Source of the DNA: Escherichia coli | Lineage (GTDB): Bacteria; Pseudomonadota; Gammaproteobacteria; Enterobacterales; Enterobacteriaceae | Strand: one strand, 5' to 3' | DNA length: 64,000 nucleotides | Assembly (NCBI RefSeq): GCF_003790525.1 | Contig: NZ_CP033635.1 | Shown here: positions 5,195-28,703 of the stretch, piece after piece | How positions within the stretch are numbered: the stretch's first letter is position 1 | Layout: every line of letters starts with the position of its first letter | The notes under the pieces: model-generated | The model's database searches: none | What the model was told of the DNA's origin: nothing | The model's input: the letters and a program-made list of their open reading frames with translations, nothing else | Program-made: the position numbers and the translations under genes

Positions 5195-5211
5195 AGTACG
5201 TCTCTTTGCGC

Positions 5212-10285: not shown

Positions 10286-10373
10286 TTTTGTAAACCTGTG
10301 CCTCAAGGTTTGTCTCCCCCCGGTGTGCAAAGCAAAAGGAAATTGGGAAAGGGGATAACAGGAAATTGATTGC

Positions 10374-10994: not shown

Positions 10995-11018
10995 TGTACG
11001 TTCAAGAGTATTAGTGTT

Positions 11019-14000
11019 ATGAATAAGATATATAAAGTCATTTGGAACCATACAACCCAAAAATGGGATGTTGTTTCAGAATTGACGAGTTGTAGAAAAA
11101 AATGTAAATCAACTCGCTTAGGAATTGCTTTATCAGCAATGGTTCTGGGGGGCGCTATTGCAATTAATTGCAATAACGCAATGGCAGATGTCATATTGTC
11201 ACCAGACTGGCGTCCGGGTACGAATAACTCGGGTGTTGGGGCTGCAACAGTAAGTGGTAAAACCGAATACATCACTGGTCCAAATGTCGTCCAGTCTGGT
11301 GGGTCAGGTCTTATCTGGATGACTGTAGAACAGGCAATTTTAAATGGTTACACCACTGGAGATAATTTATCCGGATTGATTTACGTCAATACCGGAGAAA
11401 AAACAAAAACCATTACAGTGAAGGATGAGGTTACTGGCGCTTATCAAACACTTCAAGTGTTTGATACTGACTCTTTCTCACAACGCGATGCGGGGACTGG
11501 AGGAAATGAAACCATTCCTGGTTTTAGTGGCACTGCAGATTTTTTCAATGCGACACGTTTTGTAACAGCCAATAATGGCGGTACAGCTATTTTGGATGTG
11601 GGTTCACCAGCAATCGGTAATTTTTTTAAAAATACACAGCTTGCTGTAGCTGATGGAGAAGGTTCCTCTGTTGTATGGAACTCGGTCAATGATTTTTATT
11701 TTCAGCCTGGTGCAACCATGCAGGGGGGCGGCGTTACTCAAAAAATCATTGACTCAATGAAATATGCTGGAACAATTACTGATTGGGCGGGAAAAGTACA
11801 CCATATTAACTCTCTTGATGATTTAAAGCAATATAATCAATATTTGATAAAGTCACTAGAGGACAAAACGCTTTCTTATAAGCAGTATGATGCTGAATTT
11901 AATAAGGCCCTTATTGTCACCAAGCATAATTACAATGTGGATATGACCGCTGGGGGACGTATAGACTCAACTCCTTACAAAGAAAATGTAGGGCTGCTTG
12001 CTGTTCTCCATGCAACCAATAACGCACGAGCAATATTAGGTAAAACGGGTAAATTAACTGGAGTTCTTCCTGCCTATGGGAATGGAGGAGGGATCGTTGC
12101 AACTAATGGTGGGACCGGTGTTAATGAAGGGGTCATTGATGCCATTGGTACTGAAATGATTGCCTATCAAGACAGTACCATTGTTAACGATGGTACACTT
12201 TTTGTTTGGGATAATAATGATAAATATGCTCTCCAGGCAGAGGGGATGGTTGCCGGTAGTAATGGTTCTTCAGCCATTAATAATGGTGTTATTAATATTC
12301 GCCCATTTAAAAATGCTTTCGCTCCAGAGGGGATTAACACCGCAATTGTTGTTAGTAATGGGGGCATGGCAACAAATAAAGGCACAATAAATATTACTGC
12401 CGATGCATCAACTAATGATAATAATGGCAAAACACGAGGTGTAAATGTTGGAGCTGGAGGCTCTTTTATTAACTCGGCCTTCGGGAGCATCAATGTAGGT
12501 ATTGCGGAGGATAAAACTGCGACTCATTCGGCTGTGGGTTCTGTTGCGATTGAAGTACAAAATGGTGCAAACAAAGTCGTTAATGAAGGTACTATTTTTT
12601 TGGGCAGGGGGGCTCAGGGGAACTACGGAATCCTGGCAAAGGATGCCGGGAGTGTTGATGTGGTAAATAAAGGGACTATCACTATTGACGGTTATGACAG
12701 TGATGCACCTGCACTGAATGTTGGCATGCTGGCAAATAATAGCTCCGGGATGAAAAACTCCGGGATTATCAATGTTAATGGTCTGAACAGTACCGGGCTA
12801 CAGGTAATCAATGCAGGGCAATTAAATTCTGACGGTACGATAAATGTTGGCGGCGAGGGTATCAGTAGTGGTTTCCGTAACTATGGTGCCTGGGTGGAAG
12901 GTGCCAGAAGCAATGTTAATGTATCCGGAAAAATCAATCTTTCCGGTACTGGTGCTGTGGGGGTTTTTGCCAAAGATGGCGGCAGTCTTACCTTGTCAGG
13001 CAATGGTGCAGTGCTATTTGGCAGCAGCGATCAGATAGGCTTTTATGTCTATGGAAAGGACTCTGCCATTCATAATACCGGAAGCGGTGTTATGGATGTG
13101 TCCACTGAAAACTCAACATTATTCCGTATTGCCAGCGGTGCGACATTCCAGGGAACTGCAGATGCTTCTTCTGCACTTACGGCGTCTGGTAAGAACTCTT
13201 ATGCACTTATTGCCACGGGGAAATCGGATGGCGGTGTGGCCTCGACAGTAACGTCTGGAGGAATGACCATCAACCTGACGGGGGAGGGGGCTACAGCGAC
13301 TTTAATTGAAGGGGGAGCGCAGGGCACAATTGAAAGTAATGCCATTATCAATATGGATAATGCCAGTGCAATAGCCGGTATTGCGGATGGCAATGGCTAT
13401 GATATTTCCGGCAAACTCATTAATCCGAAGGACAAGACCACACTATTAACGGCGGGGGCTCAGTTAAGTTCCACCCAGGATAAAGTGACCGGGTATATCG
13501 CCCGTAATGGGGCCACTCTAAATAATACCGGTAATATCATCTTTACTGGAAAGAATACAGTGGGCGTCCGGGTTGAGGAGGGTGCTGTTGGTACCAACAG
13601 CGGAAATATTACAGTTCAGGATGGTGGTGTGGGACTAATTGCTAATGCCACACAAGATGTTACAACGATTAATAACTCGGGAAATCTCGTTCTCAAGGGG
13701 GGAGATAATGCTAACCGTACAACGGGTATAAAAGCATCTGGTACAACAACAACGGTTAATATGACCGCGGGTACTATATCTTTGCAGGGACAGGGGGCGA
13801 TTGGCGTTGAGGCCAGCAATAAAGGGACTGTTAACCTTGATGGCTCGGCAGTACCGAACTTTGCTTCTGACGGCTCTGGTATTACCGATCAGATTGCTTT
13901 TCGTATTATCGGAGATGGTGCAACCATTAAGACGAATATTGCACCGGGAACTCTGCTGGATGCCAGTGGGGAACGTTCTGTACTTTTCCGTATTGAAGAT

Positions 14001-17000
14001 GGGGCAAAACAGGCCGGCTCTTTGCTGATGAAAACCTCCGGGACAGGCAGCCGTGGTATCTGGGCCACAGGGAAAGGGAGCAATGTCCTGGCTGATGCTG
14101 GCAGTGATTTCCAGATCCTGGGCGCTCAGGCTCAGGGATTATATGTAACTGGTGGTGCGACAGCGACGCTGAAACAGGGGGCATCAGTTAACCTTGTAGG
14201 GGATGGCGCTGTTGTCGCGGAAGTTGACGGAAATGAATACGCTCTGGATGGCAGTATTACACAAACGAATACTGGCTCGGTTATTACCAATGAGGCAGAT
14301 ATCTCTTCGCCGCTGAATAATGCCAAGGGCTTTATTACGCGTAATCAGGGACTGTTGATTAACAGCGGCAACATTGATTTCACTACCGGTACAGATAATA
14401 TCGGCGTCTGGGTTGATAATGGTCGTTTTGAAAATACAGGAAGCCGTATAGCGGTCAATGGCGTTGCATTATTTGTTGAAGGTGAACACGCTCAGATTAC
14501 CAGCACGGGAGGGGATATCGTCGCTGTGGATGGTGAGGCTGCCATTAAGCTGGGGGCGGGCGCGTCACTGAACCTGGCAGGGAGTGGCCTGGGAACGATC
14601 GAAGGTCAGAAAAATGCGCATGGCATCCTGCTGGATACAGGGGCTGTGGGGCTGGTTATTGATGGTGCGAAAATCAATGTTAATGCTGCAGGTGCGGTCG
14701 GTCACGGGATTGAGAACCGTGCAGAAATTGAAGGCATTCAGTTAACCAATACGACTGAAATTAATGTGGCTGATGGCATTGGTGTGCGAACTTCTGCTTC
14801 TCTGGCCAAGACCAACAGCGGCACTATTAATGTAGACGGCAGTGGAATTGCACTGGCGTTCCAGAAAGCTGACGGAAGTGAAACCGATAATAACCTGGAT
14901 ATGTCTGACTCCGGCGGATTAGTCATTAATCTGAAAGGCACGGGCGGCACGGGTATTTTCGCCAACACTAAAGATGGTGCTGTCGTGAAGAGTGGTGCAA
15001 GTGTCAATGTTACACAGGCCGATGGCGGTTCCGCTCTGGTGGTTAACAATGCGGCCAGTGAAGTGGTTCAGAGCGGTAATCTCATCTCTGCTTCTCTGAG
15101 TCATGCCGTAGTGGATGCTTCAAAAGCACAGTCCTTTACCAATAAAGGTCAGATTAAAGCTGCGTCCGCCACCGGGACTGCAATGGCGTTTGATGACGCC
15201 GTGAATACCACCGTACTGAATGACAGCGGTGCTGAAATTCAGGGGGTTGTGGCTCTGAACGGCGGTGATAACACATTCACCAATAAAGGCAGTATTACCG
15301 GAACCGTCAGTGCAAAAGAGGGTAACAATACATTTTTATTTGATGATGGCAGCATACTGACAGGAGAAGTGGCTGCAGGAAATGGCAATAACAATGTAAC
15401 GCTCAATGGTAAGGCTCATGTTGATAAGGTTACTGCCGGTACCGGGAAGAACACCTTCACCATTAAAGGCGAAGGGGCAACCTGGAACCTGCTGGATGGC
15501 GGGCAGGGAGATTCTGATTCCCTGATTTTTGATAACGCCATTCATACGCTGGATTCTGCTGTAAAACTACGGAATTTTGAACATGTCGGGCTGAAGAACA
15601 GTTCGCTTGTCACTCTGAAGGAAGCTCTTGTGCTGACCGATGGGGGGACCGGCCCGGGTTCCGTCGATATTGAATCGGGCAGCGAACTGGCCATTATTCC
15701 CGCAGTTGCAGGCAACTTTACCTTTGATCCACTGTTAACAGGCAAAGGAACACTGTCTGCCCGTCTTGATGCCGACACATCTGCTTTTGAATTCAGCCAT
15801 AACGTCGGGGATCAATTTGCCGGAACTCTGAAGCTGGGTACCAGTAGCTTTGCTCTGGAAGGGCTGAATACGAGCGGGTTAACCCATGCAATGCTGATGT
15901 CTGAAACCGGGAATATCACAACGGTTGGCTCCGGTGTTCAGCAGATTGGCGGTCTTGGGTTCAATGGCGGAACGCTGATTTTTGGTTCCGTTATGCCGGG
16001 CGATACCATTGCCAGCAACAGTATTGAAACCTCTGCTGCAGGTACGCTGGATATCCGGGGGAAAGGCACAATTCAGGTCACCATGCCAGATGAAGTGATT
16101 AATGATATTCCGGCTGTTGATACCCGTAAGAATTTGCTGGAGCAGGATGATGCGCAGACCCTGGTCACACTGGTGAATGCAGCGGGTACCGTCACCGGTA
16201 CTGGCGGGCAACTGCAACTGGTGGATGAAAACGGGCAGGCTATTTCTCACAGTCAGACGTTTGATGTCACTCAGGGCGGTGAAGTTGTAGCTCAGGGAAA
16301 TTATGACTATAAGCTGCTGGGAAGCTCCGACGGTGTTAAAGGTGACGGACTGTACATAGGCTATGGGCTGAAGTCGCTGGATTTACAGGGAACCGGTGAT
16401 AAAGCGCTGGTGCTGACACCGAGAGCGAATGCCCAGGGACTGCAGACAGATCTTGGTGCACAGTTAACGGGGGCAGGGGATCTGGCCATCGAAGCTGCGG
16501 GGCAGGTTGTCACACTGTCTAACGGCGGTAATAACTACACCGGGGATACGCTGGTGCGCAGCGGCACACTGCAGATGGCAAATGATAATGTGCTTGGCGC
16601 TACAGGTAGCCTGAACGTTGCCAGCAATGCCGTCTTCAGAACAGACGGATACAGCCAGACGGTGGGTGCACTGCAGACAGAAACGGGAGCGCACATTCAG
16701 CTTGATAGCGGTAGTGTACTCACGGTCAGCGGCACGCAGCGTCAGCCGGGCGATGATAATGGTGGCATCATTGAAAACAATGTGCTGACCGGAGACGGTA
16801 CGCTGGCTGTCACGGGCAGCAATCTGACGGTACATGGCACCAATATCGGGTTCACCGGTAATGTCAGCCTTACCCGGGGTTCGCTGGTTGAAATGAACGG
16901 CGCACAGGGGCTGGGAAGCCAGGGCTCCATCAGCTTTGAAAGCCTTAATGATCGCCTGGCGATTGATATCGCCGACGGTAGCGGAGTCAGCAGTAACCTG

Positions 17001-18932
17001 AGTAAATCGCTTTCCGGAAAAGGTTCAGTGGGCATACTGAACACCACTGATCTGACACTTTCCGGAGATAACCGTAATTTCAGCGGTGAATTCCGTGTGC
17101 AGAAAGATGCTGCTCTGCGGGCTTCAGATGAAAAACACCTGGGCACCGGGCTGATTGACAGTGATGGTGTCACCTGGCTTACCGCCAGTGGAAACTGGTT
17201 ACTGAAGAATGATATTACTGGCTCCGGCGCTCTGGTGAAACAGGGGGCGGGTAATCTGATCATTAATCATGAGCTGACTTATACCGGTGATACCACGGTT
17301 GAGAATGGCGTTCTGATTGTCGGTGATGATTCAGTCACCCGTGCCGCTGGCGCGACGTTGTCAGGATCCAAAAACATTCATGTTCTTAATGGCGGCACAC
17401 TGAGTGGGCTGGGGACCGTTTCGGGTCAGGTTAATAACCAGGGAACACTGGCATCACTGAATGCTCTCTCAGGTTATGAAACGGCAGAGGCGGGCAATTT
17501 TACCGTTGGCTCACTGACCAATACCGGCGTCATTCGTCTGGCCGGTGGTAAGACAGGAAATACCCTGACCGTAAATGGCGATTACACTGGTGGCGGTACG
17601 TTAATTATCAATACCGTGCTGGGGGATGATACTTCTGCCACTGACAAACTGATTGTCACGGGTAACACCTCCGGTGATACCGGCGTGGTGGTGAATAATG
17701 TCCGGGGCCAGGGGGCTCAGACCGCTGACGGCATTGAGATTGTGCATGTCGGTGGGCAGTCTGACGGTAACTTCAGACTGCAGAACCGTGCGGTGGCAGG
17801 GGCATGGGAATATTTCCTGCATAAAGGTAATGCGGGTGGTACTGACGGTAACTGGTATCTGCGTTCTGAATTGCCGCCAGAACCACAACCGCAGCCGCAG
17901 CCACAACCGCAGCCACAGCCACACCCCACGCCGGATAAACCTGTACAGAAGGTCTATCGTCCGGAAGCGGGCTCTTATATTGCGAACATAGCGGCAGCCA
18001 ACACGCTGTTCAACATCAGAATGCACGATCGTGAGGGGGAAACTTACTATACCGATGTGTTTACTGGTGAGAAGAAAGCAACAAGTATGTGGATGCGTCA
18101 TATCGGCGGTCATAATCGCTGGAAGGACAGCAGTTCACAGCTGAATACGCAAAGTAACCGTTATGTTGTGCAACTGGGTGGCAGCATTGCGCAATGGACT
18201 GACGGTCAGGACCGTCTGCAACTGGGGATTATGGCCGGTTATGGAAATGAGAAGAGTTCCACGACATCCTCGCTTTCGGGATATAAATCTAAAGGTGCGA
18301 TCAATGGATACAGCACCGGTTTATACGGAACGTGGCAGCAGAATGACGGTAATGACAACGGGGCTTATGTCGATACCTGGATCCAGTACGGATGGTTTAA
18401 TAATACCGTTAATGGTGAAAAACTGGCTGCGGAGTCCTGGAAATCCCGTGGATTTACCGGTTCAGTGGAAGCGGGTTATACCTTTAAAGCCGGCGAATTT
18501 ACCGGTAGCCAGGGTAGTCACTATGACTGGTATATTCAGCCGCAGTCCCAGATCACGTGGATGAATGTAAGAGCCAGTGAGCATACGGAGAAGAATGGCA
18601 CGAAAGTTCAGCTCAGCGGAGACGGTAATATCCAGAGTCGTCTGGGCGTCAGAACTTACCTGAAAGGTAAGAGTGCGTCTGATGATAATAAGGCGCATCA
18701 GTTCGAGCCATTTGTGGAAGTTAACTGGATCCATAATACACGGAGCTGGGGTGTCAAAATGGATAATACGGCACTCAGTCAGGACGGAGCTACAAATATT
18801 GCTGAAGTCAAAACGGGTGTTCAGGGTAAATTGTCAGATAACCTGAATGTCTGGGGCAATGTTGGTGTTCAGGCTGGCGATAAAGGGTACAGTGATGCCC
18901 AGGCAATGCTGGGTATTAAATATATATTCTAA
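11019..18932 (+). CDS. Type Va autotransporter adhesin, AIDA-I/UpaE-like, 2637 aa
   Basis: Extended signal peptide motif MNKIYKVIWNHTTQKWDVVSEL; long Gly/Asn/Thr-rich beta-helical passenger; (PQ)n linker; C-terminal beta-barrel ending ...GIKYIF. Confidence 0.9.
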   Translation: MNKIYKVIWNHTTQKWDVVSELTSCRKKCKSTRLGIALSAMVLGGAIAINCNNAMADVILSPDWRPGTNNSGVGAATVSGKTEYITGPNVVQSGGSGLIWMTVEQAILNGYTTGDNLSGLIYVNTGEKTKTITVKDEVTGAYQTLQVFDTDSFSQRDAGTGGNETIPGFSGTADFFNATRFVTANNGGTAILDVGSPAIGNFFKNTQLAVADGEGSSVVWNSVNDFYFQPGATMQGGGVTQKIIDSMKYAGTITDWAGKVHHINSLDDLKQYNQYLIKSLEDKTLSYKQYDAEFNKALIVTKHNYNVDMTAGGRIDSTPYKENVGLLAVLHATNNARAILGKTGKLTGVLPAYGNGGGIVATNGGTGVNEGVIDAIGTEMIAYQDSTIVNDGTLFVWDNNDKYALQAEGMVAGSNGSSAINNGVINIRPFKNAFAPEGINTAIVVSNGGMATNKGTINITADASTNDNNGKTRGVNVGAGGSFINSAFGSINVGIAEDKTATHSAVGSVAIEVQNGANKVVNEGTIFLGRGAQGNYGILAKDAGSVDVVNKGTITIDGYDSDAPALNVGMLANNSSGMKNSGIINVNGLNSTGLQVINAGQLNSDGTINVGGEGISSGFRNYGAWVEGARSNVNVSGKINLSGTGAVGVFAKDGGSLTLSGNGAVLFGSSDQIGFYVYGKDSAIHNTGSGVMDVSTENSTLFRIASGATFQGTADASSALTASGKNSYALIATGKSDGGVASTVTSGGMTINLTGEGATATLIEGGAQGTIESNAIINMDNASAIAGIADGNGYDISGKLINPKDKTTLLTAGAQLSSTQDKVTGYIARNGATLNNTGNIIFTGKNTVGVRVEEGAVGTNSGNITVQDGGVGLIANATQDVTTINNSGNLVLKGGDNANRTTGIKASGTTTTVNMTAGTISLQGQGAIGVEASNKGTVNLDGSAVPNFASDGSGITDQIAFRIIGDGATIKTNIAPGTLLDASGERSVLFRIEDGAKQAGSLLMKTSGTGSRGIWATGKGSNVLADAGSDFQILGAQAQGLYVTGGATATLKQGASVNLVGDGAVVAEVDGNEYALDGSITQTNTGSVITNEADISSPLNNAKGFITRNQGLLINSGNIDFTTGTDNIGVWVDNGRFENTGSRIAVNGVALFVEGEHAQITSTGGDIVAVDGEAAIKLGAGASLNLAGSGLGTIEGQKNAHGILLDTGAVGLVIDGAKINVNAAGAVGHGIENRAEIEGIQLTNTTEINVADGIGVRTSASLAKTNSGTINVDGSGIALAFQKADGSETDNNLDMSDSGGLVINLKGTGGTGIFANTKDGAVVKSGASVNVTQADGGSALVVNNAASEVVQSGNLISASLSHAVVDASKAQSFTNKGQIKAASATGTAMAFDDAVNTTVLNDSGAEIQGVVALNGGDNTFTNKGSITGTVSAKEGNNTFLFDDGSILTGEVAAGNGNNNVTLNGKAHVDKVTAGTGKNTFTIKGEGATWNLLDGGQGDSDSLIFDNAIHTLDSAVKLRNFEHVGLKNSSLVTLKEALVLTDGGTGPGSVDIESGSELAIIPAVAGNFTFDPLLTGKGTLSARLDADTSAFEFSHNVGDQFAGTLKLGTSSFALEGLNTSGLTHAMLMSETGNITTVGSGVQQIGGLGFNGGTLIFGSVMPGDTIASNSIETSAAGTLDIRGKGTIQVTMPDEVINDIPAVDTRKNLLEQDDAQTLVTLVNAAGTVTGTGGQLQLVDENGQAISHSQTFDVTQGGEVVAQGNYDYKLLGSSDGVKGDGLYIGYGLKSLDLQGTGDKALVLTPRANAQGLQTDLGAQLTGAGDLAIEAAGQVVTLSNGGNNYTGDTLVRSGTLQMANDNVLGATGSLNVASNAVFRTDGYSQTVGALQTETGAHIQLDSGSVLTVSGTQRQPGDDNGGIIENNVLTGDGTLAVTGSNLTVHGTNIGFTGNVSLTRGSLVEMNGAQGLGSQGSISFESLNDRLAIDIADGSGVSSNLSKSLSGKGSVGILNTTDLTLSGDNRNFSGEFRVQKDAALRASDEKHLGTGLIDSDGVTWLTASGNWLLKNDITGSGALVKQGAGNLIINHELTYTGDTTVENGVLIVGDDSVTRAAGATLSGSKNIHVLNGGTLSGLGTVSGQVNNQGTLASLNALSGYETAEAGNFTVGSLTNTGVIRLAGGKTGNTLTVNGDYTGGGTLIINTVLGDDTSATDKLIVTGNTSGDTGVVVNNVRGQGAQTADGIEIVHVGGQSDGNFRLQNRAVAGAWEYFLHKGNAGGTDGNWYLRSELPPEPQPQPQPQPQPQPHPTPDKPVQKVYRPEAGSYIANIAAANTLFNIRMHDREGETYYTDVFTGEKKATSMWMRHIGGHNRWKDSSSQLNTQSNRYVVQLGGSIAQWTDGQDRLQLGIMAGYGNEKSSTTSSLSGYKSKGAINGYSTGLYGTWQQNDGNDNGAYVDTWIQYGWFNNTVNGEKLAAESWKSRGFTGSVEAGYTFKAGEFTGSQGSHYDWYIQPQSQITWMNVRASEHTEKNGTKVQLSGDGNIQSRLGVRTYLKGKSASDDNKAHQFEPFVEVNWIHNTRSWGVKMDNTALSQDGATNIAEVKTGVQGKLSDNLNVWGNVGVQAGDKGYSDAQAMLGIKYIF
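17874..17933 (+). repeat. Pro-Gln dipeptide repeat linker (CCGCAG/CCACAA units)
   Basis: PPEPQPQPQPQPQPQPHPTP in the translation; tandem 6-nt units in the DNA. Confidence 0.85.
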
Positions 18933-18939
18933 TCACACA

Positions 18940-18965
18940 GTGGCAGGAGGGGACCTCCTGCCACC
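18940..18965 (+). terminator. Strong hairpin 3' of the autotransporter
   Basis: TGGCAGGAGG-GGA-CCTCCTGCCA perfect 10-bp stem just after the stop; no clear T-run, so the terminator call is tentative. Confidence 0.35.
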
Positions 18966-18979: not shown

Positions 18980-19510
18980 ATGAGTTCTGTAATGAAATTT
19001 TCTGTTGTTAATGCAGTAGTGCTGCTGTTGCTGATTGTACTTACTGGTGTTTTTTATATGAAAAAGTCAAAAGAAATTGCAGTTGTTAATATCGATGCTA
19101 TTTATAATCAGTCTGCCGCCGGAGACATGGCCAGAAAACATCTGAATGAGGTTAAGAGTATTCTTGAAAAAGGATATGAGGATGCGCAAAAAGTATTCGC
19201 AGATAACGCGAATAAAGAGGCGCTGCTTCTTGATGCCAGACAAAAACTGGAACGACAATATGTTATTGAGGAAAATAGCGCAAAAATGGTGTTATCCCGT
19301 GCGATAGATAATGCTATAGGCACATGGAGAAAAGACAATCCTAAAAATATTGCCGTATTGTCTTCAGGTGTTGTGCTTGCGCATAACGAGTCAGCTGATA
19401 TCACCAAAGAAGTCATGACTCTGGTTGAAAAAGAAAATCTGGTTTTTAATAAATTACCCAAAGTGGAAGTGCACAATAAGAATGAAGAGAAACCAGAACA
19501 AAGTAAGTAA
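18980..19510 (+). CDS. Skp/OmpH-like periplasmic chaperone paralog
   Basis: 176-aa ORF with signal/TM segment; IAVVNIDAIYNQSAAG and NIAVLSSGVVLAHNESADITKEVMTLVEK resemble Skp IAIVNMGSLFQQVAQ and [29 protein letters not shown] from memory. Confidence 0.55.
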   Translation: MSSVMKFSVVNAVVLLLLIVLTGVFYMKKSKEIAVVNIDAIYNQSAAGDMARKHLNEVKSILEKGYEDAQKVFADNANKEALLLDARQKLERQYVIEENSAKMVLSRAIDNAIGTWRKDNPKNIAVLSSGVVLAHNESADITKEVMTLVEKENLVFNKLPKVEVHNKNEEKPEQSK

Positions 19511-19947: not shown

Positions 19948-19966
19948 TGGTGTCCCTGCAGAAATC
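19948..19966. repeat. Degenerate copy of argW 3' end (putative distal att of the satellite)
   Basis: TGGTGTCCCTGCAGAAATC versus the argW 3' end TGGTGTCCCCTGCAGGAATC at 32636-32655 (17 of 20); about 12.7 kb from the tRNA. Confidence 0.5.
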
Positions 19967-20183
19967 ATCTTAATTATTATTATGTTGATTTATATGTAGT
20001 TTATTTTTGATTTTTTGTTTTTGTACCCGTTTTGTGCCCGTTTTATTCGATTCCCAATTTAAACTTCGATTCTAGAAAGGTGAGTAGGGGAGGTTATCAT
20101 TTCATGTATCATTATTGTAGACACAGAATAATTACTCGCCTATCCTCACTGTAGACACACAATAGATACAGGAGTTAACCCAC

Positions 20184-20432
20184 ATGCGCACACAGGTTGT
20201 ATTGCAAAAATGGGGTAATAGCATTGCCCTTCGACTAACGGGAAACCTTAAAACCGTTCCGGGGTTTTCAGTGGGTGATATCGTCAACGTTGAAATTAGT
20301 GAAAAGGGGCTTTTTGTAGAAAAGCCTGCACGCCGTCGCCTGAGTGAAGCCGAATTACTCGCCGGGATAACGCCAGTTACAGCGCACGCGGACGAAATTG
20401 CCACCCCATTCAATGAGGAGGTTGATTACTGA
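20184..20432 (+). CDS. MazE/PemI-family antitoxin (AbrB/SpoVT fold)
   Basis: 82-aa ORF MRTQVVLQKWGNSIALRL...; stop overlaps the toxin start. Confidence 0.75.
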   Translation: MRTQVVLQKWGNSIALRLTGNLKTVPGFSVGDIVNVEISEKGLFVEKPARRRLSEAELLAGITPVTAHADEIATPFNEEVDY

Positions 20433-20776
20433 TGTTTGTACCTAAGCGTGGTGATATTTGCTGGCTGGATTTTGAGCCGCAGAAAGGAAAAGAGAGCGGA
20501 AAGTATCGCCCGGCACTCATACTATCCCATGAGCAATATAACCGACTCACCGGGCTTGTCATATGCTGCCCCATAAGTACGAGCATACGAAATGCTCCCA
20601 CAGAAGTTCCGGTAACAAATCTGGACGCCCCCAGCGTGGTAGCAACCACACTCATTCAAACCCTTGACTGGCGTCAGCGGAAAGCGCGCTTAATCACAGA
20701 GGCAGAAGATGGGGTATTTAATGATGTGCTTGAAAGAGTCATTACCCTGATTGGTGGAGAGCATCTGCTTAAGTAA
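20432..20776 (+). CDS. MazF/PemK-family toxin (endoribonuclease)
   Basis: 114-aa ORF MFVPKRGDICWLDFEPQKGKESGKYRPALILS..., PemK/MazF-like N-terminus; coupled to the upstream antitoxin. Confidence 0.75.
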   Translation: MFVPKRGDICWLDFEPQKGKESGKYRPALILSHEQYNRLTGLVICCPISTSIRNAPTEVPVTNLDAPSVVATTLIQTLDWRQRKARLITEAEDGVFNDVLERVITLIGGEHLLK

Positions 20777-20819
20777 AAGGAGGGCTGAGAAGCCCTCAAC
20801 GTTACCAGAAATTTCCTTG

Positions 20820-22091
20820 CTATTCTTTCCAGTCAATCCCATCCAGTAAGCACCCTGCCTCATATTGCCCAACAACCCAGTCAAGATTGCAGGACTCATA
20901 GAAAGCGAGGCGATTATACTGTGGCTCGTTTTTTACCAGACCACGAACGGAGCCGCGTTGCCAGTACAGGCACAGATTGGCAAGAGGTGTGATCAGCACA
21001 GCATTGTCCGGGAAAAATGGAACGGTCACAGCCGGAAGATTCCCCAGCACGGGCTTTTTAATGATTTCCTCGTTAAGCAAAATTTCCTGATTCATCTGCG
21101 ATGGATCAAGACGGTTTATCAAAGGCCATTGTTTACGGACCAGAGTATTGTGACTGCATACGGCCACAATGCCTTCCTGCCACTGTTCATCAATCATGGA
21201 TTGCCAGGCATCCAGAACAAGTGCATCTATTGTATGGTGTGTACCGCGTGTATTGCTTGTCGGCGATGAAACAGAAAGACCGCTGATAACCCTTCCCGCT
21301 GCTTCGTTTCGAAACTTCTGCAACCATCCGACGCCGCAATCGTCACGGCCCGGATATGTTTCAGGATCAGATTGATCGGCATAGTGTGTGCCGTTAAAAC
21401 CAATCTGAATTAAATCCAGCCATTTCCGGCGTTCAAAAGCGGCACGGGCGCTTCCTTCAAGACCATTTGCGGACGCGTGAGCATCGACATTGTCGTAGCT
21501 CAACGCAAAATCAAAATTAACCTGCTCGCAGCGGTAGCCTCTTGAAACCAGTGAATGCGCCTGTAGTGGCGAACGGCGCTCGTGAGGTGGCGATGTACGT
21601 GCCAACGGCCGGGAAGCGTCTACCAGCACAACCTGACCTGATATATCCGTAACAGGCACGGGGGTTATTTCAGCAAGGAAATTTGCCTGCCATCCACTGG
21701 CAAGCGTTGCACTCTGGCGGGGAACGGGTTCAACTTCTGACGAATAGCGCGCAGTATCACCGGAAAAGTGCAAATCCTTCGGATGCTTTCCGGTTATCGA
21801 CTCGATAGCGCAATTGAAAACCATCTGAGACTGTTGATTTCGTTGTGATACAACATAATCAGCAGTGCAATTATAACACTCAATGCCGTCGTTATTACCC
21901 CCACCGCTTGCAGTATGCAGGGTGTGAAGCTCAAGCTCACGCTCCAGTTTTTGATATTCATTGTCCAGCGCGCGACGCGTCTCATCGCTTATGCTTGCTG
22001 TGTTTGCTTTCAGGCGATTCCGGGACATTAACTCCCTGAGTCGGCTCACTATATCAGCGCCGTGCAAATGTGAAATATTCAGACCGCCCAT
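20820..22091 (-). CDS. Hypothetical protein B of a two-gene cargo operon (about 423 aa), no recognisable family
   Basis: Start taken at the internal ATG (MGGLNISHLHG...) that overlaps the upstream gene stop as TAATG; the longer 470-aa ORF is read as an artefactual extension. Confidence 0.6.
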   Translation of the reverse strand: MGGLNISHLHGADIVSRLRELMSRNRLKANTASISDETRRALDNEYQKLERELELHTLHTASGGGNNDGIECYNCTADYVVSQRNQQSQMVFNCAIESITGKHPKDLHFSGDTARYSSEVEPVPRQSATLASGWQANFLAEITPVPVTDISGQVVLVDASRPLARTSPPHERRSPLQAHSLVSRGYRCEQVNFDFALSYDNVDAHASANGLEGSARAAFERRKWLDLIQIGFNGTHYADQSDPETYPGRDDCGVGWLQKFRNEAAGRVISGLSVSSPTSNTRGTHHTIDALVLDAWQSMIDEQWQEGIVAVCSHNTLVRKQWPLINRLDPSQMNQEILLNEEIIKKPVLGNLPAVTVPFFPDNAVLITPLANLCLYWQRGSVRGLVKNEPQYNRLAFYESCNLDWVVGQYEAGCLLDGIDWKE

Positions 22092-22801
22092 TACTGCCAC
22101 CCCCGGCAGAGTTCTCTGCCCTCCGCAAGGTCGCGCATTTTTTCTGGATTCTGTCGCGCCGCGCTCCATTGTACAGGTGAAGGGGCGTTCCTGATTGCGT
22201 GGCTTACCGAATCCGGCAGTTTCTCCGGGCAATAACGAAGCGGATTGGAGGCATCGCTCTCAATATCGTTAATCCGGCCGCGAATCAGCCCGACACTTTC
22301 AACAATATCTGCCATTTTCAGTGTTTCACATATTTTCTTTTCTGCGTTATACAGCGGCTGGCCAAGCAGCTCACATAAACCACGAATCAATAGCAGAGCA
22401 GGGGTCAGCTCGTTAATCAGTCCGGGAAGTGCTTTTGCAAATATCTCTGCCCGCAACTTATTATCAATGCTTTGGTAAGCACAGCCAGCCTCTGCCGCGT
22501 TATAACGACACTCCAGTAACCTGATGCGCGCCTCATCATGCAATACCCGCAGACGCTCAAGATTTTCTCGCGCCACACCCGCCTGAATGCATAATTTTGC
22601 GGAGGCTTCCGTTTTTGCGCCCAGCGCAGACAGGATTGAGTTCTGCCAGTCACGTTCGAGAGACTCCAGCTCCCCTTTCGTCTGTTCGATAGTCGCTTCC
22701 AGATTGGTGATTAATGATTCCTGTTCGCTGAGTTTTGCCATGGCCGTATCAAACTGTGCTTTACATGCCTGATGCCTGGCGCTTGCCTGAGTTATATCCA
22801 T
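22091..22801 (-). CDS. Hypothetical protein A of the two-gene cargo operon (236 aa), predicted coiled-coil N-terminal half
   Basis: Heptad-like, charge-rich N-terminus (KLSEQESLITNLEATIEQTKGELESLERD); no known motif recognised; first gene of the operon. Confidence 0.6.
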   Translation of the reverse strand: MDITQASARHQACKAQFDTAMAKLSEQESLITNLEATIEQTKGELESLERDWQNSILSALGAKTEASAKLCIQAGVARENLERLRVLHDEARIRLLECRYNAAEAGCAYQSIDNKLRAEIFAKALPGLINELTPALLLIRGLCELLGQPLYNAEKKICETLKMADIVESVGLIRGRINDIESDASNPLRYCPEKLPDSVSHAIRNAPSPVQWSAARQNPEKMRDLAEGRELCRGWQ

Positions 22802-22965
22802 TGTTTGCTCCTGTAATACATTTTTTACTTACGCCCATTTTTTCCATATTGCGTAATACATTCCAGCCGATTTTGTTCTCGTAATACGCTCACAATACTG
22901 TTGTATTACGCTTTCTTATATCGCGGGTGTTAAATCCCGGTATAAGCAATCAGGGAGGCAACACG

Positions 22966-23199
22966 ATGAAAAAACAAAAGAAAATGCGATACGTATTACG
23001 CTGTATTCGTATCCCGCACGAAATCGACCATAAAATAAATCAGATATGTAAGGACAGAGAGATGAACTACTCCCAGTGCGTCAGAATGTTTATCTGTCAG
23101 GGAATTAAGGCCGGGGAAACGCAGGAAGAAGACCGCAACGGGCGCAATGTAGCGGGAGATGTGTGGGCCTGGGCAAATGACCAGAACTACACGACGTAA
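22966..23199 (+). CDS. Small hypothetical protein, possibly a ribbon-helix-helix regulator
   Basis: Start taken at MKKQKKMRYVL...; divergent from the cargo operon; beta-strand then two helices by eye. Confidence 0.35.
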   Translation: MKKQKKMRYVLRCIRIPHEIDHKINQICKDREMNYSQCVRMFICQGIKAGETQEEDRNGRNVAGDVWAWANDQNYTT

Positions 23200-23249
23200 T
23201 ACAGAAATAACGTAGCCGGTTACACTCGCTGGCTGCGTTATACAAATCA

Positions 23250-23432
23250 CTATGAAGTTTTCAACTTCCTGCGCTTAGTGATGCGTACAAACGACTCAAG
23301 CGTACAAAAACAAGCCCCACACTCAATATTACTGCACTGGTAATACGTTTTGTAGATGTTTTGTTCGTGCTCTTCCAACGAACGACTACGGGTTCGGGCT
23401 GAAGCGCCACAGGCCGGGCAAGGGAAAGACAT
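23250..23432 (-). CDS. Ogr/Delta-family zinc-finger late-gene activator
   Basis: 60-aa ORF MSFPCPACGASARTRSRSL...YYQCSNIECGACFCTLESFVRIT aligns with P2 Ogr (MFHCPLCQHAAHARTSRYI...YHQCQNVNCSATFITYESVQRYIV). Confidence 0.8.
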   Translation of the reverse strand: MSFPCPACGASARTRSRSLEEHEQNIYKTYYQCSNIECGACFCTLESFVRITKRRKLKTS

Positions 23433-23793
23433 ATCACGCTCCTCTTACTGGTGTGAAATTTGACCTATTATATCTCCTGCCGCCCCCTCTGGCTGTATCA
23501 AATAAACCCGCAGCAGTCGCCGCGTATTACGGACGGACGCACCGTTCCCATGCTCACTCGTCACATTCCCCGTATCAGTTCTCTCTTACCGTAAGAACGG
23601 CTCTGGCTGGCGATAAAACTAACCCGGTCGGGCATTCCCGCAGTCTTTAGAGAAAATGTAATTTACCCCCTGAAACGTGGGCTGTTCCCCCGTCACCTGC
23701 GCGCGAAAAACTCACCGTTTTTTGTGCACGCACGAAATCGCCCTCCGGGTGCGCCAGTACTGGGCCGGATGGGCAAAAAGTTACTCTAAAAAA

Positions 23794-23820
23794 TTGTGCA
23801 AATTTGTGCACTTTTGTGCA
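23794..23820. promoter_or_regulatory. Three direct TTGTGCA repeats at 10-bp spacing (operator-like)
   Basis: TTGTGCA at 23794, 23804 and 23814, with a fourth copy at 23722; helical phasing suggests a DNA-binding protein array. Confidence 0.35.
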
Positions 23821-24042
23821 GATGAACAATAGCGTGAAAAAGAGTGCTTTTGAGAGATTTTTTATGGCAACTGCGCCGCGTGTATTACGTTTTTTACCAT
23901 CCCCGCCGCGCATGTACATACTTCATTTTTCTGCCAGACAACAGGGCAACTCCCCGTGACTGACAGCCCCAAAAAATCAATGATTGATGTTGCATTTTTG
24001 TTAAAGGTTAGACCAGTTGTTTTAGGGCTCTGCCTCATAATC

Positions 24043-24366
24043 CGGTGGGGGGTGCGCAAAGCGGTTACAACGGTTACAACACTCAAAAACACCACTTAAC
24101 AGCATGATTTTAATGGATATTGTTTGTAACCGCTTTGCGGTTACACTGCGGTTACAACGGTTACAGGTTTCAAAAAGCACTTTATTATCAATCAATTAAA
24201 AACTTAACCTGTAACCGCCTGTAACCTAACAAAACGGTTACATGTAACCGCGTTGTAACCGCTTTTATAACTCATCGGACCAGTTATAATATATTGATAT
24301 ATAATACAAAAATAAGTAATTTTAAATTTGTAACCGTTGTAACCGCTTTGCGCACCCCCCCCCAAA
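24043..24366. repeat. Iteron cluster flanked by a ~30-bp inverted repeat (candidate satellite origin)
   Basis: GGGGGGTGCGCAAAGCGGTTACAACGGTTAC (24045-24076) and its reverse complement (24330-24363); at least 8 GGTTACA/TGTAACC copies in both orientations in between. Confidence 0.7.
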
Positions 24367-24611
24367 CTTTAGCGCGACCCTTTAAAATGTTAATTAAACT
24401 CACTTACTCTGTATCTCTCTCGTTAACTCTCTGTTATTGAAATGTATCTCTCCACTGTTTCACTCTTTCTGATAATCAGGGGAAGCAAAAAATTGATGGC
24501 GGCACTACTGCAATATGGCCACCATTGCATTGCTGTTACCGTTGGTTCTGGCCAACAAAAAAGGTCAGCGGGAAACTGACCTCTTTTGCTGTGAATGCGG
24601 CGTTCTGCGGG

Positions 24612-25616
24612 TTACTCTGCTGGCTCTTTTTCTTCGGTGATCACTATGTTGGCTACCGGGTTAAATCTCATGGCATCTGCCAGATAATCCGGTGCAAAAT
24701 GTGCGTATGCCATAGTCTGCTGAATTGTCGCATGCCCAAGGATTTTTTGTAGCGCAAGAATGTTGCCACCGTTCATCACAAAGTGACTGGCGAATGTATG
24801 CCGCAATACATGCGCAGCCTGCCCCCTCGGTAAATCGGGTTTTATTTTTTTTAATGCCCGGCAAAACTCTCTGTACTTCACATCAAACAGTCGCCCGGTT
24901 TCTTTTGTTTTTACGGCATCGCATATTTCCTGCGACACAGGCACCGTTCTTTTTCTACCGTTTTTGGTTTCCAGAAACGTTATTCTGTTATGAACTATTT
25001 GCTCTCCATGCAATCTGCTGGCCTCACTCCAGCGGGCTCCGGTACAAAGACACAAGAGCGCAACCCTTCGTTGATCTCCATTCAGCCCGTCAAGCAACAA
25101 TGTGACCTCGTTTTTTGATAAAAAGGCCATTTCCCGCTGCTTTACATAAAGAACAGGAATACCACGAACCGGATGCTCTGCATCCCACAAACCGATCTTT
25201 TTCAGGGCTGTAAACATCCCCGATAATCTGTTCATGTATCTGTTTGCTGAGGACGGCTTTAATCCTTCCGCAATTTTCTGCGATCGCCATGCAATGATTT
25301 TTAATTTGTTGAGTTCTGCCGCAAACATGTCAGCTCCAAGCTCATTAATAATTTTGCCAAGTTGCTGTTTATCCGTGTTTGCCTTTCGCCTGTGCTGACC
25401 GTGATAGACCCACCACAATTCCAGTAAATCGCTAAGCGTTCTCCGGTCGCGATAGCCCTGTATAAACTCGCGCTTTTCGGCGTTCGCTATGATGTACCGT
25501 TCAGTTGCTGTAGCTATCGATTTTTTGTCAAATATTCTTCTGATGCGCTTCCCTTTACGTCCGCATGGCCTGATATCGAGCAGCCACCGCCCATCATGCA
25601 TCTTTCTGATCGGCAT
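24612..25616 (-). CDS. Tyrosine recombinase (phage integrase family, XerC/D-like)
   Basis: Catalytic region ARWSEASRL ... HVLRHTFASHFVMNGGNILALQKILGHATIQQTMAYAHF; ATG at 25616 with GGAGG upstream, directly after the primase stop. Confidence 0.7.
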   Translation of the reverse strand: MPIRKMHDGRWLLDIRPCGRKGKRIRRIFDKKSIATATERYIIANAEKREFIQGYRDRRTLSDLLELWWVYHGQHRRKANTDKQQLGKIINELGADMFAAELNKLKIIAWRSQKIAEGLKPSSANRYMNRLSGMFTALKKIGLWDAEHPVRGIPVLYVKQREMAFLSKNEVTLLLDGLNGDQRRVALLCLCTGARWSEASRLHGEQIVHNRITFLETKNGRKRTVPVSQEICDAVKTKETGRLFDVKYREFCRALKKIKPDLPRGQAAHVLRHTFASHFVMNGGNILALQKILGHATIQQTMAYAHFAPDYLADAMRFNPVANIVITEEKEPAE

Positions 25617-25618
25617 GT

Positions 25619-28288
25619 TTAACTCCCCTCCTTGTAACTGAATATCCGGCATTTCAGTACTTCCGGCTCTCTGGCCTCGGCGACCCCTCTTCCGGCGTTT
25701 GCCTGTCTGGAGACCTCACTACGAATGGTTTTGCGGCCTGTCAAAGGTCGGGAACGTCCGGCTGCGAGCAACTCAATCATTTCGCGGTCAGTTCGGATCT
25801 CCACGCGGTGAATAGCGGCAGCCTGTGCCAGTTGCGGAATACTGATAGCAATCCCCTCGCGGCATCCCTTGCCGTAGTGGTTTACACCGTATTTTGTTAT
25901 GCCGTCCAGATAGTCGAACGCCTCCCAGAACGCTATTACTTCCGGCAAGTCATCCGTTACCGCTTTAACTTGTTCCGCTGCCATTCGTTCCAGTTCCTGG
26001 CATGTGGCATTAAGCCATTCATCCGGGATATCAATAACGCATTTCAGCGCCCTGACCAGCGCAATAAGTTGCGCGTGATTTTTGGCAATACGGGGATGGA
26101 GAATATTTTCGCAACCGCAAAGGCGGGTCGTTTCAGGCTCTGAGAGCGCCAGAAACATTTCCATAATTGCCCGTTCACGGCTGACTGCCCGATGAATAAA
26201 CCCTGACACCTTCTCAACGGGGTAGAGTTCCAGTCGTCTCGCCGCCAGCCGGGTATCAGACGAGTGGCGCTTTTTATCGGTATATATGCGAATCAGTCGC
26301 TCAATAATTGCAAGTGAGGCGTTTACCCTGGCATTCTGTGCAATCACGATAGCGCCCTTAAAATCCGGGTCATAGGTGTTGTTATTGTTGGTCTTAACGC
26401 CACGAACGCCGATACCGCCGCCGTTATAGAGGCTTTTCAGGTTATCGAAGTCAAACGCACCTCTTTTTTGCGCATTGCCTCCCCTGTCTGCTTCAATCAG
26501 AACAACAGGTAATCCGGCGACCTGTCCAAAGGTGCGCTTCCAGCCCGCCTCTGATCCTTTGGTTGGATCAACGCCTTCATAGTTGTCACGACCGCACAAC
26601 CGCCAGCAAAAATCAATCAATGTTGATTTACCCGTTCCGGGCTCCCCGGTGACTTCAAGGAAGGGGAAGGATTCTTCTTTATCCCGGATTTGTTCGCTGA
26701 ACAGGGAGCCCAACCAGAAAGCCAGGGTAATAATTCCTTTTTCACCAAAAGCCAGCCAGAGATCTTCCACCCAGGACTCTGTAAACTCATCCGGTTTTTT
26801 GTAGTTAATCTGTAATGTGGGTTTTTCGCTTAATGGTTTTGCGTTTATGCCATCAATTTCAAAATAATCTTCGTCATTGATTTCATAAGTTTTTCCCTTG
26901 TAAACAGCAATATCATTAAACAGCCATGCCCCAATCGCCTTGTTGTATCCGATAAAATCCTGACCAATAACCTCTTTTATTGCGGGAAGGTCATTTTTTA
27001 TTAATGCGTCAAGGTGCGCAGTTGTTCCGGTATAAATGCCGCCTTTTGCCACATGCAACAGGCGTTTTTTAAATTCAGATGCGGATGTCAATTGTCCTGA
27101 TGTAAAGGTGTTTTTCACCGTAGCACCATCCGGGAACGTAACACGGAAGTAATACCATGCTTCATCCGTGTCATTATTTCTAATGTAATAAAGCGGCGCT
27201 GGGTTACAGTTTGCGATTTCTTTTACTGCGCCAGATTCCTTAAGTGCAATTTTGCGCGCTTCATCCTCATCAACACTTCTCTCATTCTTGGCACGCTCTA
27301 CAGCTTTCATATAGCGCTCAATGTCCAGTTTGAACCAGAAAACACGGTTATCAAAAGTAAAATGAAATTCCTTCCGCTCACGAAAGGAAAATATTATTAG
27401 CGCCTTATCTCTCGGAGATTTCGCCAGCAATAAATCACCGTAATGACGGTATCTTTTCACATCATGGCCACGCAGCTTTCCGGCGATGTGTAAATCATTC
27501 CAGTCGCGTTTATTGTTGTTTTTACCTGGCAACGCCGCTGCCGTTCTCCAGCCGTCTTCGGCGCTGCGTTCTGCATGTTTTTTCGCGTAACGCTCACCCG
27601 CACGCCCGTTATCCAGCGCCCACACAATAACCGGACGGGGATTATCCCCGCACAGCTTCGCCAGCTCTTCCAGCGCCTTATCAGGGTAGTTCACGGCAGA
27701 CATGACAGAAACGGCCGCAATGCCATTCTGGTTAAGGCTGATGGCATCAAAGATGCCCTCACAAATCCAGATTTCTTTGGCCTTGCTTAAATCTGCTCCC
27801 GGATAAGCCCACCACAACCCCTTGTAGCTGCCGGAAAAATTCGCCTTGCGCGCGAAGCGTCCCGGTCGGTCTATGATGCGCTCCCACCACACGCCGTCAG
27901 CCAGCGTAAAACGCACAGTAGCGGCCTGTTCGCCGTTTTCCTTGTCCTGGTATCGCTCCTGAGTAAATGCGCCCTTCAGTGGCCCCACAGCAATATTGCG
28001 CGCCTCCTGAAGATAAGCTGCCACCGCTGCATATGGCTCGTCTTTCGTGCTGATATAACGATCTGACCATGATGAAAACACATCCGGGTAAAGTTCTTTG
28101 GTCAGCAGGTCTGTACCGCATTTATTTTCGCGCCCACAGTGTACGATGTACGGCCTTTCAAGGCTGGTAAACAACTCTTTCTTTCCACATTGCGGACAAA
28201 CACCATACCGGAGGTAGTTATTTTCTTCTTTGAAGTTGTAATCACGGATAAGACGGTTAATAATCTCTTTTCTGATGTCAGATTTCAT
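25619..28288 (-). CDS. Primase-helicase (P4 alpha / PICI Pri-Rep-like)
   Basis: N-terminal zinc finger CPQCGKKEL...HCGRENKCG, TOPRIM-like region, Walker A GEPGTGKST; start at the ATG with GGTGGAG SD rather than the upstream GTG. Confidence 0.85.
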   Translation of the reverse strand: MKSDIRKEIINRLIRDYNFKEENNYLRYGVCPQCGKKELFTSLERPYIVHCGRENKCGTDLLTKELYPDVFSSWSDRYISTKDEPYAAVAAYLQEARNIAVGPLKGAFTQERYQDKENGEQAATVRFTLADGVWWERIIDRPGRFARKANFSGSYKGLWWAYPGADLSKAKEIWICEGIFDAISLNQNGIAAVSVMSAVNYPDKALEELAKLCGDNPRPVIVWALDNGRAGERYAKKHAERSAEDGWRTAAALPGKNNNKRDWNDLHIAGKLRGHDVKRYRHYGDLLLAKSPRDKALIIFSFRERKEFHFTFDNRVFWFKLDIERYMKAVERAKNERSVDEDEARKIALKESGAVKEIANCNPAPLYYIRNNDTDEAWYYFRVTFPDGATVKNTFTSGQLTSASEFKKRLLHVAKGGIYTGTTAHLDALIKNDLPAIKEVIGQDFIGYNKAIGAWLFNDIAVYKGKTYEINDEDYFEIDGINAKPLSEKPTLQINYKKPDEFTESWVEDLWLAFGEKGIITLAFWLGSLFSEQIRDKEESFPFLEVTGEPGTGKSTLIDFCWRLCGRDNYEGVDPTKGSEAGWKRTFGQVAGLPVVLIEADRGGNAQKRGAFDFDNLKSLYNGGGIGVRGVKTNNNNTYDPDFKGAIVIAQNARVNASLAIIERLIRIYTDKKRHSSDTRLAARRLELYPVEKVSGFIHRAVSRERAIMEMFLALSEPETTRLCGCENILHPRIAKNHAQLIALVRALKCVIDIPDEWLNATCQELERMAAEQVKAVTDDLPEVIAFWEAFDYLDGITKYGVNHYGKGCREGIAISIPQLAQAAAIHRVEIRTDREMIELLAAGRSRPLTGRKTIRSEVSRQANAGRGVAEAREPEVLKCRIFSYKEGS

Positions 28289-28336
28289 ATATAAAACTCC
28301 ACCCCACTGCACCTTTTGCCGTGGGGTTTTTATTAA

Positions 28337-28636: not shown

Positions 28637-28703
28637 AAAAACTCCCCGACCCGTTAAGATCGAAATATAAATTTAATTCAGTTATCAGTTGGTAATTCGG
28701 TAA

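Follow-up and report, generated by a model that had tools for sequence, protein, structure and literature searches.

A Skp/OmpH-family gene directly behind the phase-variable autotransporter gene upaE of Escherichia coli and its possible role as a cargo-linked chaperone

Does a classical autotransporter bring along a periplasmic chaperone of its own? This question is raised by a 64,000-nucleotide stretch of Escherichia coli DNA (contig NZ_CP033635.1 of assembly GCF_003790525.1; hereafter the window), in which an open reading frame (ORF) of 176 amino acids (18980–19510, + strand; WP_000100042.1) begins with ATG 47 nt past the stop codon of upaE, the gene of a 2637-aa autotransporter adhesin (11019–18932, + strand). 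A sequence-only reading had taken this ORF for a Skp/OmpH-like paralog and for a dedicated secretion helper of the autotransporter. In the usual account, classical (type Va) autotransporters depend on nothing beyond the Sec system, general periplasmic chaperones and the β-barrel assembly machinery and translocation and assembly module (BAM/TAM). In a review of type 5 secretion and a survey of trimeric autotransporters, dedicated helpers, namely SadB and TpgA, are described for trimeric autotransporters only, and no paper on an OmpH/Skp-like gene behind a classical autotransporter was found in the searchable literature. The ORF is a real gene of the Skp/OmpH family, and diverged relatives of it lie directly behind other autotransporter genes. 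The chances are about even that its product is a non-essential, inner-membrane-tethered, Skp-like holdase that is linked to its cargo and made together with UpaE.

The 176-aa protein and its relation to Skp

The ORF is under purifying selection. The ratio of nonsynonymous to synonymous substitution rates (dN/dS) is 0.13–0.37 against four orthologs, and of the 252 complete E. coli genomes with the gene, 250 retain at least 80% of its length, nearly all at 95–100% identity. A chance ORF or a pseudogene was considered and excluded by these dN/dS values and by the conservation across carrier genomes. Full-length relatives of the protein occur in Escherichia, Salmonella, Yersinia, Citrobacter and many metagenomes, and 163 cluster representatives match it at E ≤ 1e-3.

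Likeness to Skp is weak at the level of the sequence but solid at the level of the family and the fold. With the single sequence, the Pfam OmpH profile (PF03938) gives a non-significant match confined to residues 33–118 (E = 0.011, 16.3 bits), NCBIfam models give no match but noise, and phmmer against the Protein Data Bank (PDB) yields weak unrelated matches and does not recover Skp. BLASTP against E. coli Skp, the sequence of which was confirmed against 1SG2 and 1U2M, aligns 15 residues without significance (E = 0.055). In contrast, PF03938 is matched by 54 of 90 aligned relatives at E ≤ 1e-3 and by 82 of them at E ≤ 0.1. The family profile matches the OmpH-like structure 4KQT (E = 6e-5) and the OmpH structures 9yjt, 9nhx and 9yju (E about 5e-4), and the E. 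coli Skp query matches the same OmpH-type PDB chains at about 1e-6. The blocks resembling Skp that had been noticed in the sequence are thus real in the family and faint in this one member. A Pfam DUF1993 match (E = 0.004) was discarded, being weaker than the noise level and not recurrent among the relatives.

Structure prediction agrees with the family assignment. The AlphaFold2 (AF2) model has a mean predicted local distance difference test score (pLDDT) of 89.6 and consists of a helix at residues 9–25, a strand at 32–36, a short helix at 38–44, two long helices at 46–72 and 79–119, a strand at 123–128 and a helix at 142–150. From strand 32–36 on, the Skp protomer fold is present, with a small β-sheet body and a long α-helical hairpin; by the AF2 model and Foldseek, this Skp-like domain covers residues 30–165 (19067–19474, + strand), helices 46–72 and 79–119 forming the hairpin arm. 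The ten best Foldseek matches in the PDB are all Skp, SkpA of the type 9 secretion system or 4KQT, and high scores are obtained only with Skp/OmpH structures. Consistently, structural neighbours in the AlphaFold Database carry Skp/OmpH names, including a 98%-identical E. coli entry named 'Chaperone protein Skp', and the gene appears as 'OmpH family outer membrane protein' in more recent RefSeq records, one ortholog being merely a 'membrane protein' in RefSeq. The assignment to the Skp/OmpH family is correct and has already been made automatically in RefSeq and UniProt. When three copies were joined by Gly-Ser linkers, the AF2 model reached a predicted template modelling score of 0.65 with domain pLDDT of 80–95, and each copy gained a strand at residues 132–135 that is absent from the monomer model. 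These scores and the added strand are compatible with a Skp-like trimer.

The protein shares with Skp (HlpA/OmpH; 1SG2/1U2M) an N-terminal strand, a long two-helix arm and C-terminal strands and helix. The soluble part is of similar length, 141 aa in Skp and 136 aa here, and the N-terminal export signal of Skp has a predicted counterpart. However, identity is 15–20% in structural alignments. The helical arm of Skp spans about 91 residues in published structures, whereas that of the AF2 model spans about 75, about 16 residues fewer by the limits known for Skp. The isoelectric point (pI) is 5.9 for residues 30–165 and 7.05 for residues 28–176, in contrast to 9.52 for mature Skp. An extra conserved C-terminal motif, F-x-x-L-P-x-V, distinguishes the protein further; it reads F-N-K-L-P-K-V at residues 156–162 (19445–19465, + strand), and F156, L159, P160 and V162 are invariant in a 13-sequence alignment of the closest relatives (A2). 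Alignments of the profile to solved OmpH structures end near profile position 149 and do not reach the motif, and residues 151–160 have a pLDDT of 97 in the AF2 model. The genomic setting also differs: skp lies between bamA and lpxD, whereas the 176-aa gene has upaE and argW on its two sides and belongs to an accessory module of low G+C content found in 252 of 5426 genomes.

Because the identity in structural alignments is only 15–20% and the BLASTP match to Skp is not significant, the gene is not a recent duplicate of skp but a very distant, horizontally acquired member of the Skp/OmpH family. The term paralog therefore stands as to family and falls as to a duplication of the housekeeping gene; the G+C content of 37% goes with horizontal acquisition. 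The claim that the protein is other than the housekeeping Skp is borne out by the BLASTP result, by the absence of the module from K-12 and by a pI that is not strongly basic. Another Skp-like paralog of E. coli (P0086, 214 aa) differs strongly from the 176-aa protein; its gene adjoins a GerE gene and lies near that of an ESPR protein.

Skp is soluble, whereas the 176-aa protein has a long hydrophobic N-terminus and a predicted membrane anchor. The signal or transmembrane segment pointed out earlier is present at residues 7–26 (FSVVNAVVLLLLIVLTGVFY; 18998–19057, + strand), where hydropathy, AF2 helix 9–25 and the alignment with lipobox-bearing relatives predict an uncleaved signal anchor. At the N-terminus, a single lysine precedes 21 residues without charge (FSVVNAVVLLLLIVLTGVFYM), the Kyte-Doolittle mean over 19 residues is 2.67 as against 1.17 in the Skp signal peptide, and the hydrophobic stretch of 20 residues has no A-x-A cleavage motif. 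A lysine cluster, KKSKE (K28–E32; 19061–19075), follows directly and is conserved in close orthologs. The residues 'LTG-V' align where many relatives have the lipobox L-x-G-C. By a rough pattern match, a lipobox-like motif occurs in 72 of 138 full-length relatives, 29 of which have Asp at position +2, and some relatives have ordinary cleavable signals of the signal-peptidase-I type. In enterobacteria, Asp at +2 serves as the signal for retention in the inner membrane. The members of the clade are probably not soluble but anchored in the inner membrane on its periplasmic side, and an uncleaved signal anchor in place of a lipid anchor can be inferred as the tether of the E. coli protein.

Linkage to autotransporter genes and possible expression with upaE

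The window is 100% identical to E. coli SMS-3-5 and other strains across 18980–19510, and the region is E. coli chromosome. The order at the locus is dsdC, ipuB, ipuA, a 317-bp spacer with ipuS, ipuR, upaE and the 176-aa ORF. ipuB (8109–8678, − strand; placed by offset from the RefSeq annotation of the identical SMS-3-5 locus and by the ORF list) and ipuA (9427–10056, + strand; SMS-3-5 annotation, ORF list and PMC6083910) encode tyrosine-type DNA invertases, that of ipuB belonging to the phase-variation module. The spacer between ipuA and ipuR (10057–10373 by ORF coordinates) contains most of the invertible promoter element ipuS, and its length is that reported in PMC6083910. ipuR (10374–10994, + strand), the first gene of the ipuS-driven transcript, encodes a LuxR/GerE-type regulator according to the SMS-3-5 annotation, PMC6083910 and matches of the C-terminal helix-turn-helix to LuxR-type regulators.

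The product of upaE is an AIDA-I-type (type Va) autotransporter adhesin. Its β-barrel domain matches TIGR01414 at 397.7 bits, other matches being AIDA-I, MisL, ShdA and YfaL, and its N-terminus, MNKIYKVIWN..., is an extended ESPR-type signal peptide, with an ESPR Pfam match on the Salmonella ortholog. RefSeq names it 'phase-variable autotransporter adhesin UpaE', and the phase-variable locus is known from CFT073 (PMC6083910). The position of the 176-aa ORF just after a giant autotransporter gene is thus confirmed. In K-12 MG1655, only the CPS-53 prophage lies between argW and dsdC, and the whole upaE module is absent there. The G+C content is 37% in the 176-aa gene and 33–38% in ipuB, ipuA and ipuR, well under the window mean of 48%, consistent with a module gained by horizontal transfer.

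Among 5426 complete E. coli genomes, the 3'-terminal 1.2 kb of upaE and the 176-aa ORF have equal counts: each matches 252 genomes at 258 places, of which 257 are chromosomal and one is plasmid-borne, so that a few genomes carry two such pairs. This perfect co-occurrence could be simple linkage, and diverged relatives behind other autotransporters are the stronger evidence, as far as gene order can tell. The synteny argument rests on 12 encoding contigs and on tblastn searches of plasmids. At all loci described next except that of Citrobacter, the autotransporter gene immediately precedes the Skp-like gene on the same strand. In Salmonella enterica subsp. diarizonae (63% identity), a recombinase gene, a GerE regulator gene, a gene for a 2632-aa ESPR autotransporter and the Skp-like gene follow one another. 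Two metagenomic contigs (44% and 49% identity) have large ORFs that end in a UpaE-like β-barrel, followed by the Skp-like gene. A second upaE and Skp-like cassette is found at 3388–12543 of pAPEC201602 (L011, NZ_CP127299.1), a P1-like IncY phage-plasmid of E. coli, with regulators of the PapI/PapB type upstream in place of the ipu recombinase switch. Two ORFs, of 917 and 1720 aa, make up its split autotransporter, which the gene table of the plasmid does not list; compared with the window, the β-domain is 93% identical and the Skp-like protein 76–77%.

The more distant loci differ in the passenger. In two Yersinia ruckeri plasmids (L012, 3706–10372; L013, 1280–6859; about 31–33% identity), an autotransporter gene is followed by the Skp-like gene, the passenger being a frameshifted S6 serine protease on one plasmid and a 1675-aa PATR/AC_1 passenger on the other, with the same β-domain. 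This suggests recombination that swaps passengers and keeps the pair of barrel and chaperone. In Citrobacter sp. (about 30% identity), a small gene, DUF5339, lies between the autotransporter gene and the Skp-like gene. In S. enterica (about 28% identity), a BigA-like autotransporter gene truncated by an insertion sequence precedes the Skp-like gene, and genes for a GerE regulator and a recombinase of the Fim type are close by. Roughly four independent, diverged enterobacterial lineages thus keep a Skp-like gene directly behind autotransporters with different passengers.

Several observations accompany these loci. Both Y. ruckeri autotransporter genes are frameshifted near the 3' end, and a SapC-family gene follows each cassette. 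LuxR/GerE-type regulator genes recur beside the pairs of autotransporter and Skp-like genes (ipuR here; L002, L009, L015, L019 and L021), some of which also have small tyrosine recombinases of the Fim type. Switch, regulator, adhesin and chaperone together may form a mobile unit. A match on an Enterobacter ludwigii plasmid was not counted, being weak (23% identity, E = 2e-4) and some 5 kb away from the autotransporter gene there.

The gap between upaE and the 176-aa gene is nearly filled by a perfect 11-bp GC-rich hairpin, GTGGCAGGAGG-GGA-CCTCCTGCCAC (18940–18964, + strand), which starts 8 nt after the upaE stop codon, has a folding energy of −24.1 kcal/mol and is not followed by a U tract. 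The same stem occurs at the same place with different sequences, that is, with compensatory changes, in L002 (9757–9783), L004 (5694–5719), L006 (2710–2736) and L011 (11961–11985). The U tract is lacking throughout the E. coli/Salmonella clade, whereas the hairpin of Y. ruckeri has a T run and is a canonical T-rich terminator. The terminator scan did not call the hairpin at 18940–18964 a terminator, no Rfam family matches it or the downstream spacer, and the promoter scan gave no promoter-like site upstream of the 176-aa gene on the + strand. The hairpin is probably an attenuating or mRNA-stabilising stem-loop, and might also be a processing site. Co-transcription with upaE is plausible, given the short gap, the absence of a U tract after the hairpin and the negative promoter scan. 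The most economical reading would be attenuated read-through from the ipuS promoter, which would make the gene phase-variable together with upaE.

Proposed role and rival explanations

The holdase proposed here would have been acquired horizontally as part of the ipuB-ipuA-ipuS-ipuR-upaE module. Its N-terminal hydrophobic segment would export the protein and stay uncleaved, thereby tethering the Skp-like domain at the outer face of the inner membrane, and the same tethering would apply to those lipoprotein relatives that have Asp at +2. The protein would assemble as a Skp-like trimer and would be produced by read-through of the hairpin after upaE, hence only when the ipuS switch is ON. It would take over the very long UpaE chain, slowly released by virtue of its ESPR-type signal, at the exit of SecYEG and keep it unfolded and protected until BAM/TAM inserts the β-barrel. 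It may in this way raise the yield or quality of UpaE display and spare the general chaperones, without being strictly required.

Parts of this proposal have precedents in known systems, by analogy. SadB, the helper of the trimeric autotransporter SadA, is likewise the product of a small gene that adjoins an ESPR-type autotransporter gene and is lost together with it, with a similarly short intergenic gap (44 bp as against 47 nt here). It is a trimeric inner-membrane lipoprotein that faces the periplasm, and it enhances SadA display without being required; in its absence, SadA is displayed more weakly and in a more protease-sensitive form (PMC3953254). The Asp+2 retention feature was used for SadB and verified there (PMC3953254). 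Unlike the 176-aa protein, to which it is unrelated in fold, SadB has a coiled coil and a MATH-like domain, is encoded upstream of its cargo and serves a type Vc trimeric autotransporter, its function having been shown by experiment; the cargo here is a monomeric type Va autotransporter, and the proposed helper is known from its sequence and predicted structure. TpgA, which assists the trimeric autotransporter AtaA, resembles the proposed helper as a periplasmic protein that is co-transcribed with the autotransporter and raises its surface level, but it is built of a BamE-like and an OmpA-like domain that show no similarity in fold, and its site of action is the outer membrane, where it binds peptidoglycan. 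SkpA of the Bacteroidota type 9 translocon (PDB 8GL8) belongs to another secretion system and another phylum and is 9–12% identical; its association with the translocon has been seen by cryo-electron microscopy, whereas the 176-aa protein is known from sequence and a model. OmpH-like CC_1914 of Caulobacter crescentus (4KQT; 12–14% identity) is a structural-genomics entry without a known cargo. 8GL8 would thus be a precedent for a Skp-like subunit within a translocon and SadB one for an inner-membrane helper.

A number of points weigh against the proposed role. The published plasmid pUpaE holds upaE only, its reverse primer ending at the upaE stop codon, and it confers on K-12 strain MS427 a 271-kDa band, surface immunofluorescence, biofilm formation and binding of extracellular matrix. 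UpaE is therefore displayed and functional in K-12 from upaE alone, so that the 176-aa gene is at most an enhancer; this result excludes an absolute requirement and leaves room for enhancement, as with SadB. The ribosome-binding site of the gene is poor, an AGGG that ends about 10 nt before the ATG. PMC6083910 and PMC6458436 treat ipuR-upaE as a two-gene operon, the 176-aa gene is absent from the reverse transcription quantitative PCR panel of PMC6458436, and none of the UpaE papers, including these two, mentions it. K28, K29 and K31, just past the hydrophobic segment, are unfavourable for export of the predicted C-terminal domain and conflict with the positive-inside rule. The predicted periplasmic part is neutral to slightly acidic (pI 5.9–7.0), where Skp is basic (9.5), and the trimer is addressed through the linked model only.

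Linkage itself is incomplete. The relatives at L005, L010 and L017 are not linked to autotransporter genes, and that at L021 is only near one. Among these exceptions, the contig of one relative has no autotransporter upstream, the second E. coli paralog adjoins a GerE gene with the ESPR protein 3 kb away, and two relatives, taken as non-enterobacterial from their gene neighbourhood, have no autotransporter nearby. A further relative is uninformative on linkage, since the two contigs that carry it each break off 30 nt before the gene. Moreover, the synteny sample is small, because two scans of species-representative genomes (alignments A3 and A5) both gave no confirmed relative. The earlier idea of a dedicated secretion helper accordingly holds in part: co-occurrence in 252 of 252 genomes and the order kept in about four lineages favour it, and display from pUpaE without the gene removes the sense of a required factor. 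What argues for the word dedicated is linkage, which would make it a reasonable inference from conserved synteny as distinct from a demonstrated function.

The main rival to a dedicated holdase is a general-purpose extra Skp-family holdase without cargo specificity, which would travel on the low-GC mobile module and add chaperone capacity or buffer envelope stress. It draws on the same fold and family, which are those of a general chaperone, on UpaE display without the 176-aa gene, on the relatives that are not beside autotransporters and on the fact that the housekeeping Skp already serves autotransporters such as IcsA (PMC9820271). However, hitch-hiking alone predicts neither the position behind an autotransporter, which is kept in lineages only 30–45% identical to each other with passengers as different as UpaE-like, S6 protease, PATR-repeat and BigA-like ones, nor the perfect co-occurrence with upaE in E. 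coli. Both count against a non-specific holdase, which is given about one chance in four. The protein might also be membrane-anchored and have the Skp fold without being a holdase at all; it could, for example, retain the autotransporter at the inner membrane or time its release there, or serve the neighbouring LuxR/GerE-type regulators as a sensor or partner. GerE-family genes recur near the relatives, the domain departs from Skp in its neutral pI, its shorter arm and the invariant extra F-x-x-L-P-x-V motif, and one ortholog bears the RefSeq label 'membrane protein'; but no regulatory domain was found by the Pfam scan, the AF2 model or the structure search, the Skp fold accounts for the whole soluble part, and in several loci the regulator gene is not adjacent to the Skp-like gene, which makes this reading distinctly improbable.

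Expression and topology give rise to two further alternatives. A strong hairpin directly upstream, a weak Shine-Dalgarno sequence, the lack of a promoter-like site in the scan, the canonical T-rich terminator between the two genes in the Y. ruckeri loci and the silence of the literature would all suit a poorly expressed or unexpressed passenger gene without a present function in E. coli. Such a gene is very hard to reconcile with dN/dS of 0.13–0.37 across orthologs, with a frame intact in 250 of 252 genomes at 95–100% identity and with conserved N-terminal and C-terminal motifs. An inverted topology, with the N-terminus outside and the Skp-like domain in the cytoplasm, would preclude any action on a periplasmic export intermediate. 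It would follow from the positive-inside rule, since one lysine precedes the hydrophobic segment and K28, K29 and K31 come after it in a cluster conserved in close orthologs, which favours a cytoplasmic C-terminal side. Nevertheless, the homologous domains of relatives follow lipoboxes or cleavable signals and are hence exported, and the structural relatives are all periplasmic chaperones, so that this topology is extremely improbable.

If the UpaE-linked holdase is real, the idea of a dedicated helper would extend to the largest class of autotransporters, and some 'self-sufficient' classical systems would have a third component hitherto unrecognised. It would also account for how a 271-kDa adhesin stays export-competent when the phase switch sharply raises its transcription. 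A broader proposition is that enterobacterial type Va loci repeatedly carry their own Skp-family chaperone, held by a transmembrane or lipid anchor, which hands over the giant ESPR-type passenger from Sec to BAM/TAM and in E. coli is switched by ipuS together with its cargo; on the gene order seen so far, this is tentative and would more readily fail than hold. UpaE studies and deletion strains have taken the locus as two genes. Where large autotransporters are used for surface display, co-expression of the 176-aa gene could bring an improvement.

The element inserted at argW and other features of the window

Downstream of the 176-aa gene, identity to SMS-3-5 stops at window position 19956, within tRNA sequence. 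A partial, imperfect copy of the argW 3' end (19948–19966), recognised by comparison with SMS-3-5 as an att remnant, marks where the upaE module ends and an inserted element has its left boundary, and the intact tRNA-Arg(CCU) gene argW (32636–32710, − strand; ARAGORN and SMS-3-5 comparison) forms its right edge. The element at argW (19948–32710) is roughly 12.7 kb long. SMS-3-5 lacks it and has argW 438 nt past the 176-aa ORF. Encoded on its − strand are a P4-type integrase (31195–32499), an Icd-like protein (29282–29809), a second tyrosine recombinase (24612–25652), an 897-aa protein without a family match (25619–28312) and a 470-aa protein with a P2-family major-capsid domain (20820–22232). 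The element looks like a phage satellite or P4-like island. Further along the window, a 415-aa ORF between mlaA and fadL (34946–36193, − strand; WP_000937808.1) is annotated in SMS-3-5 as 'hypothetical protein' only.

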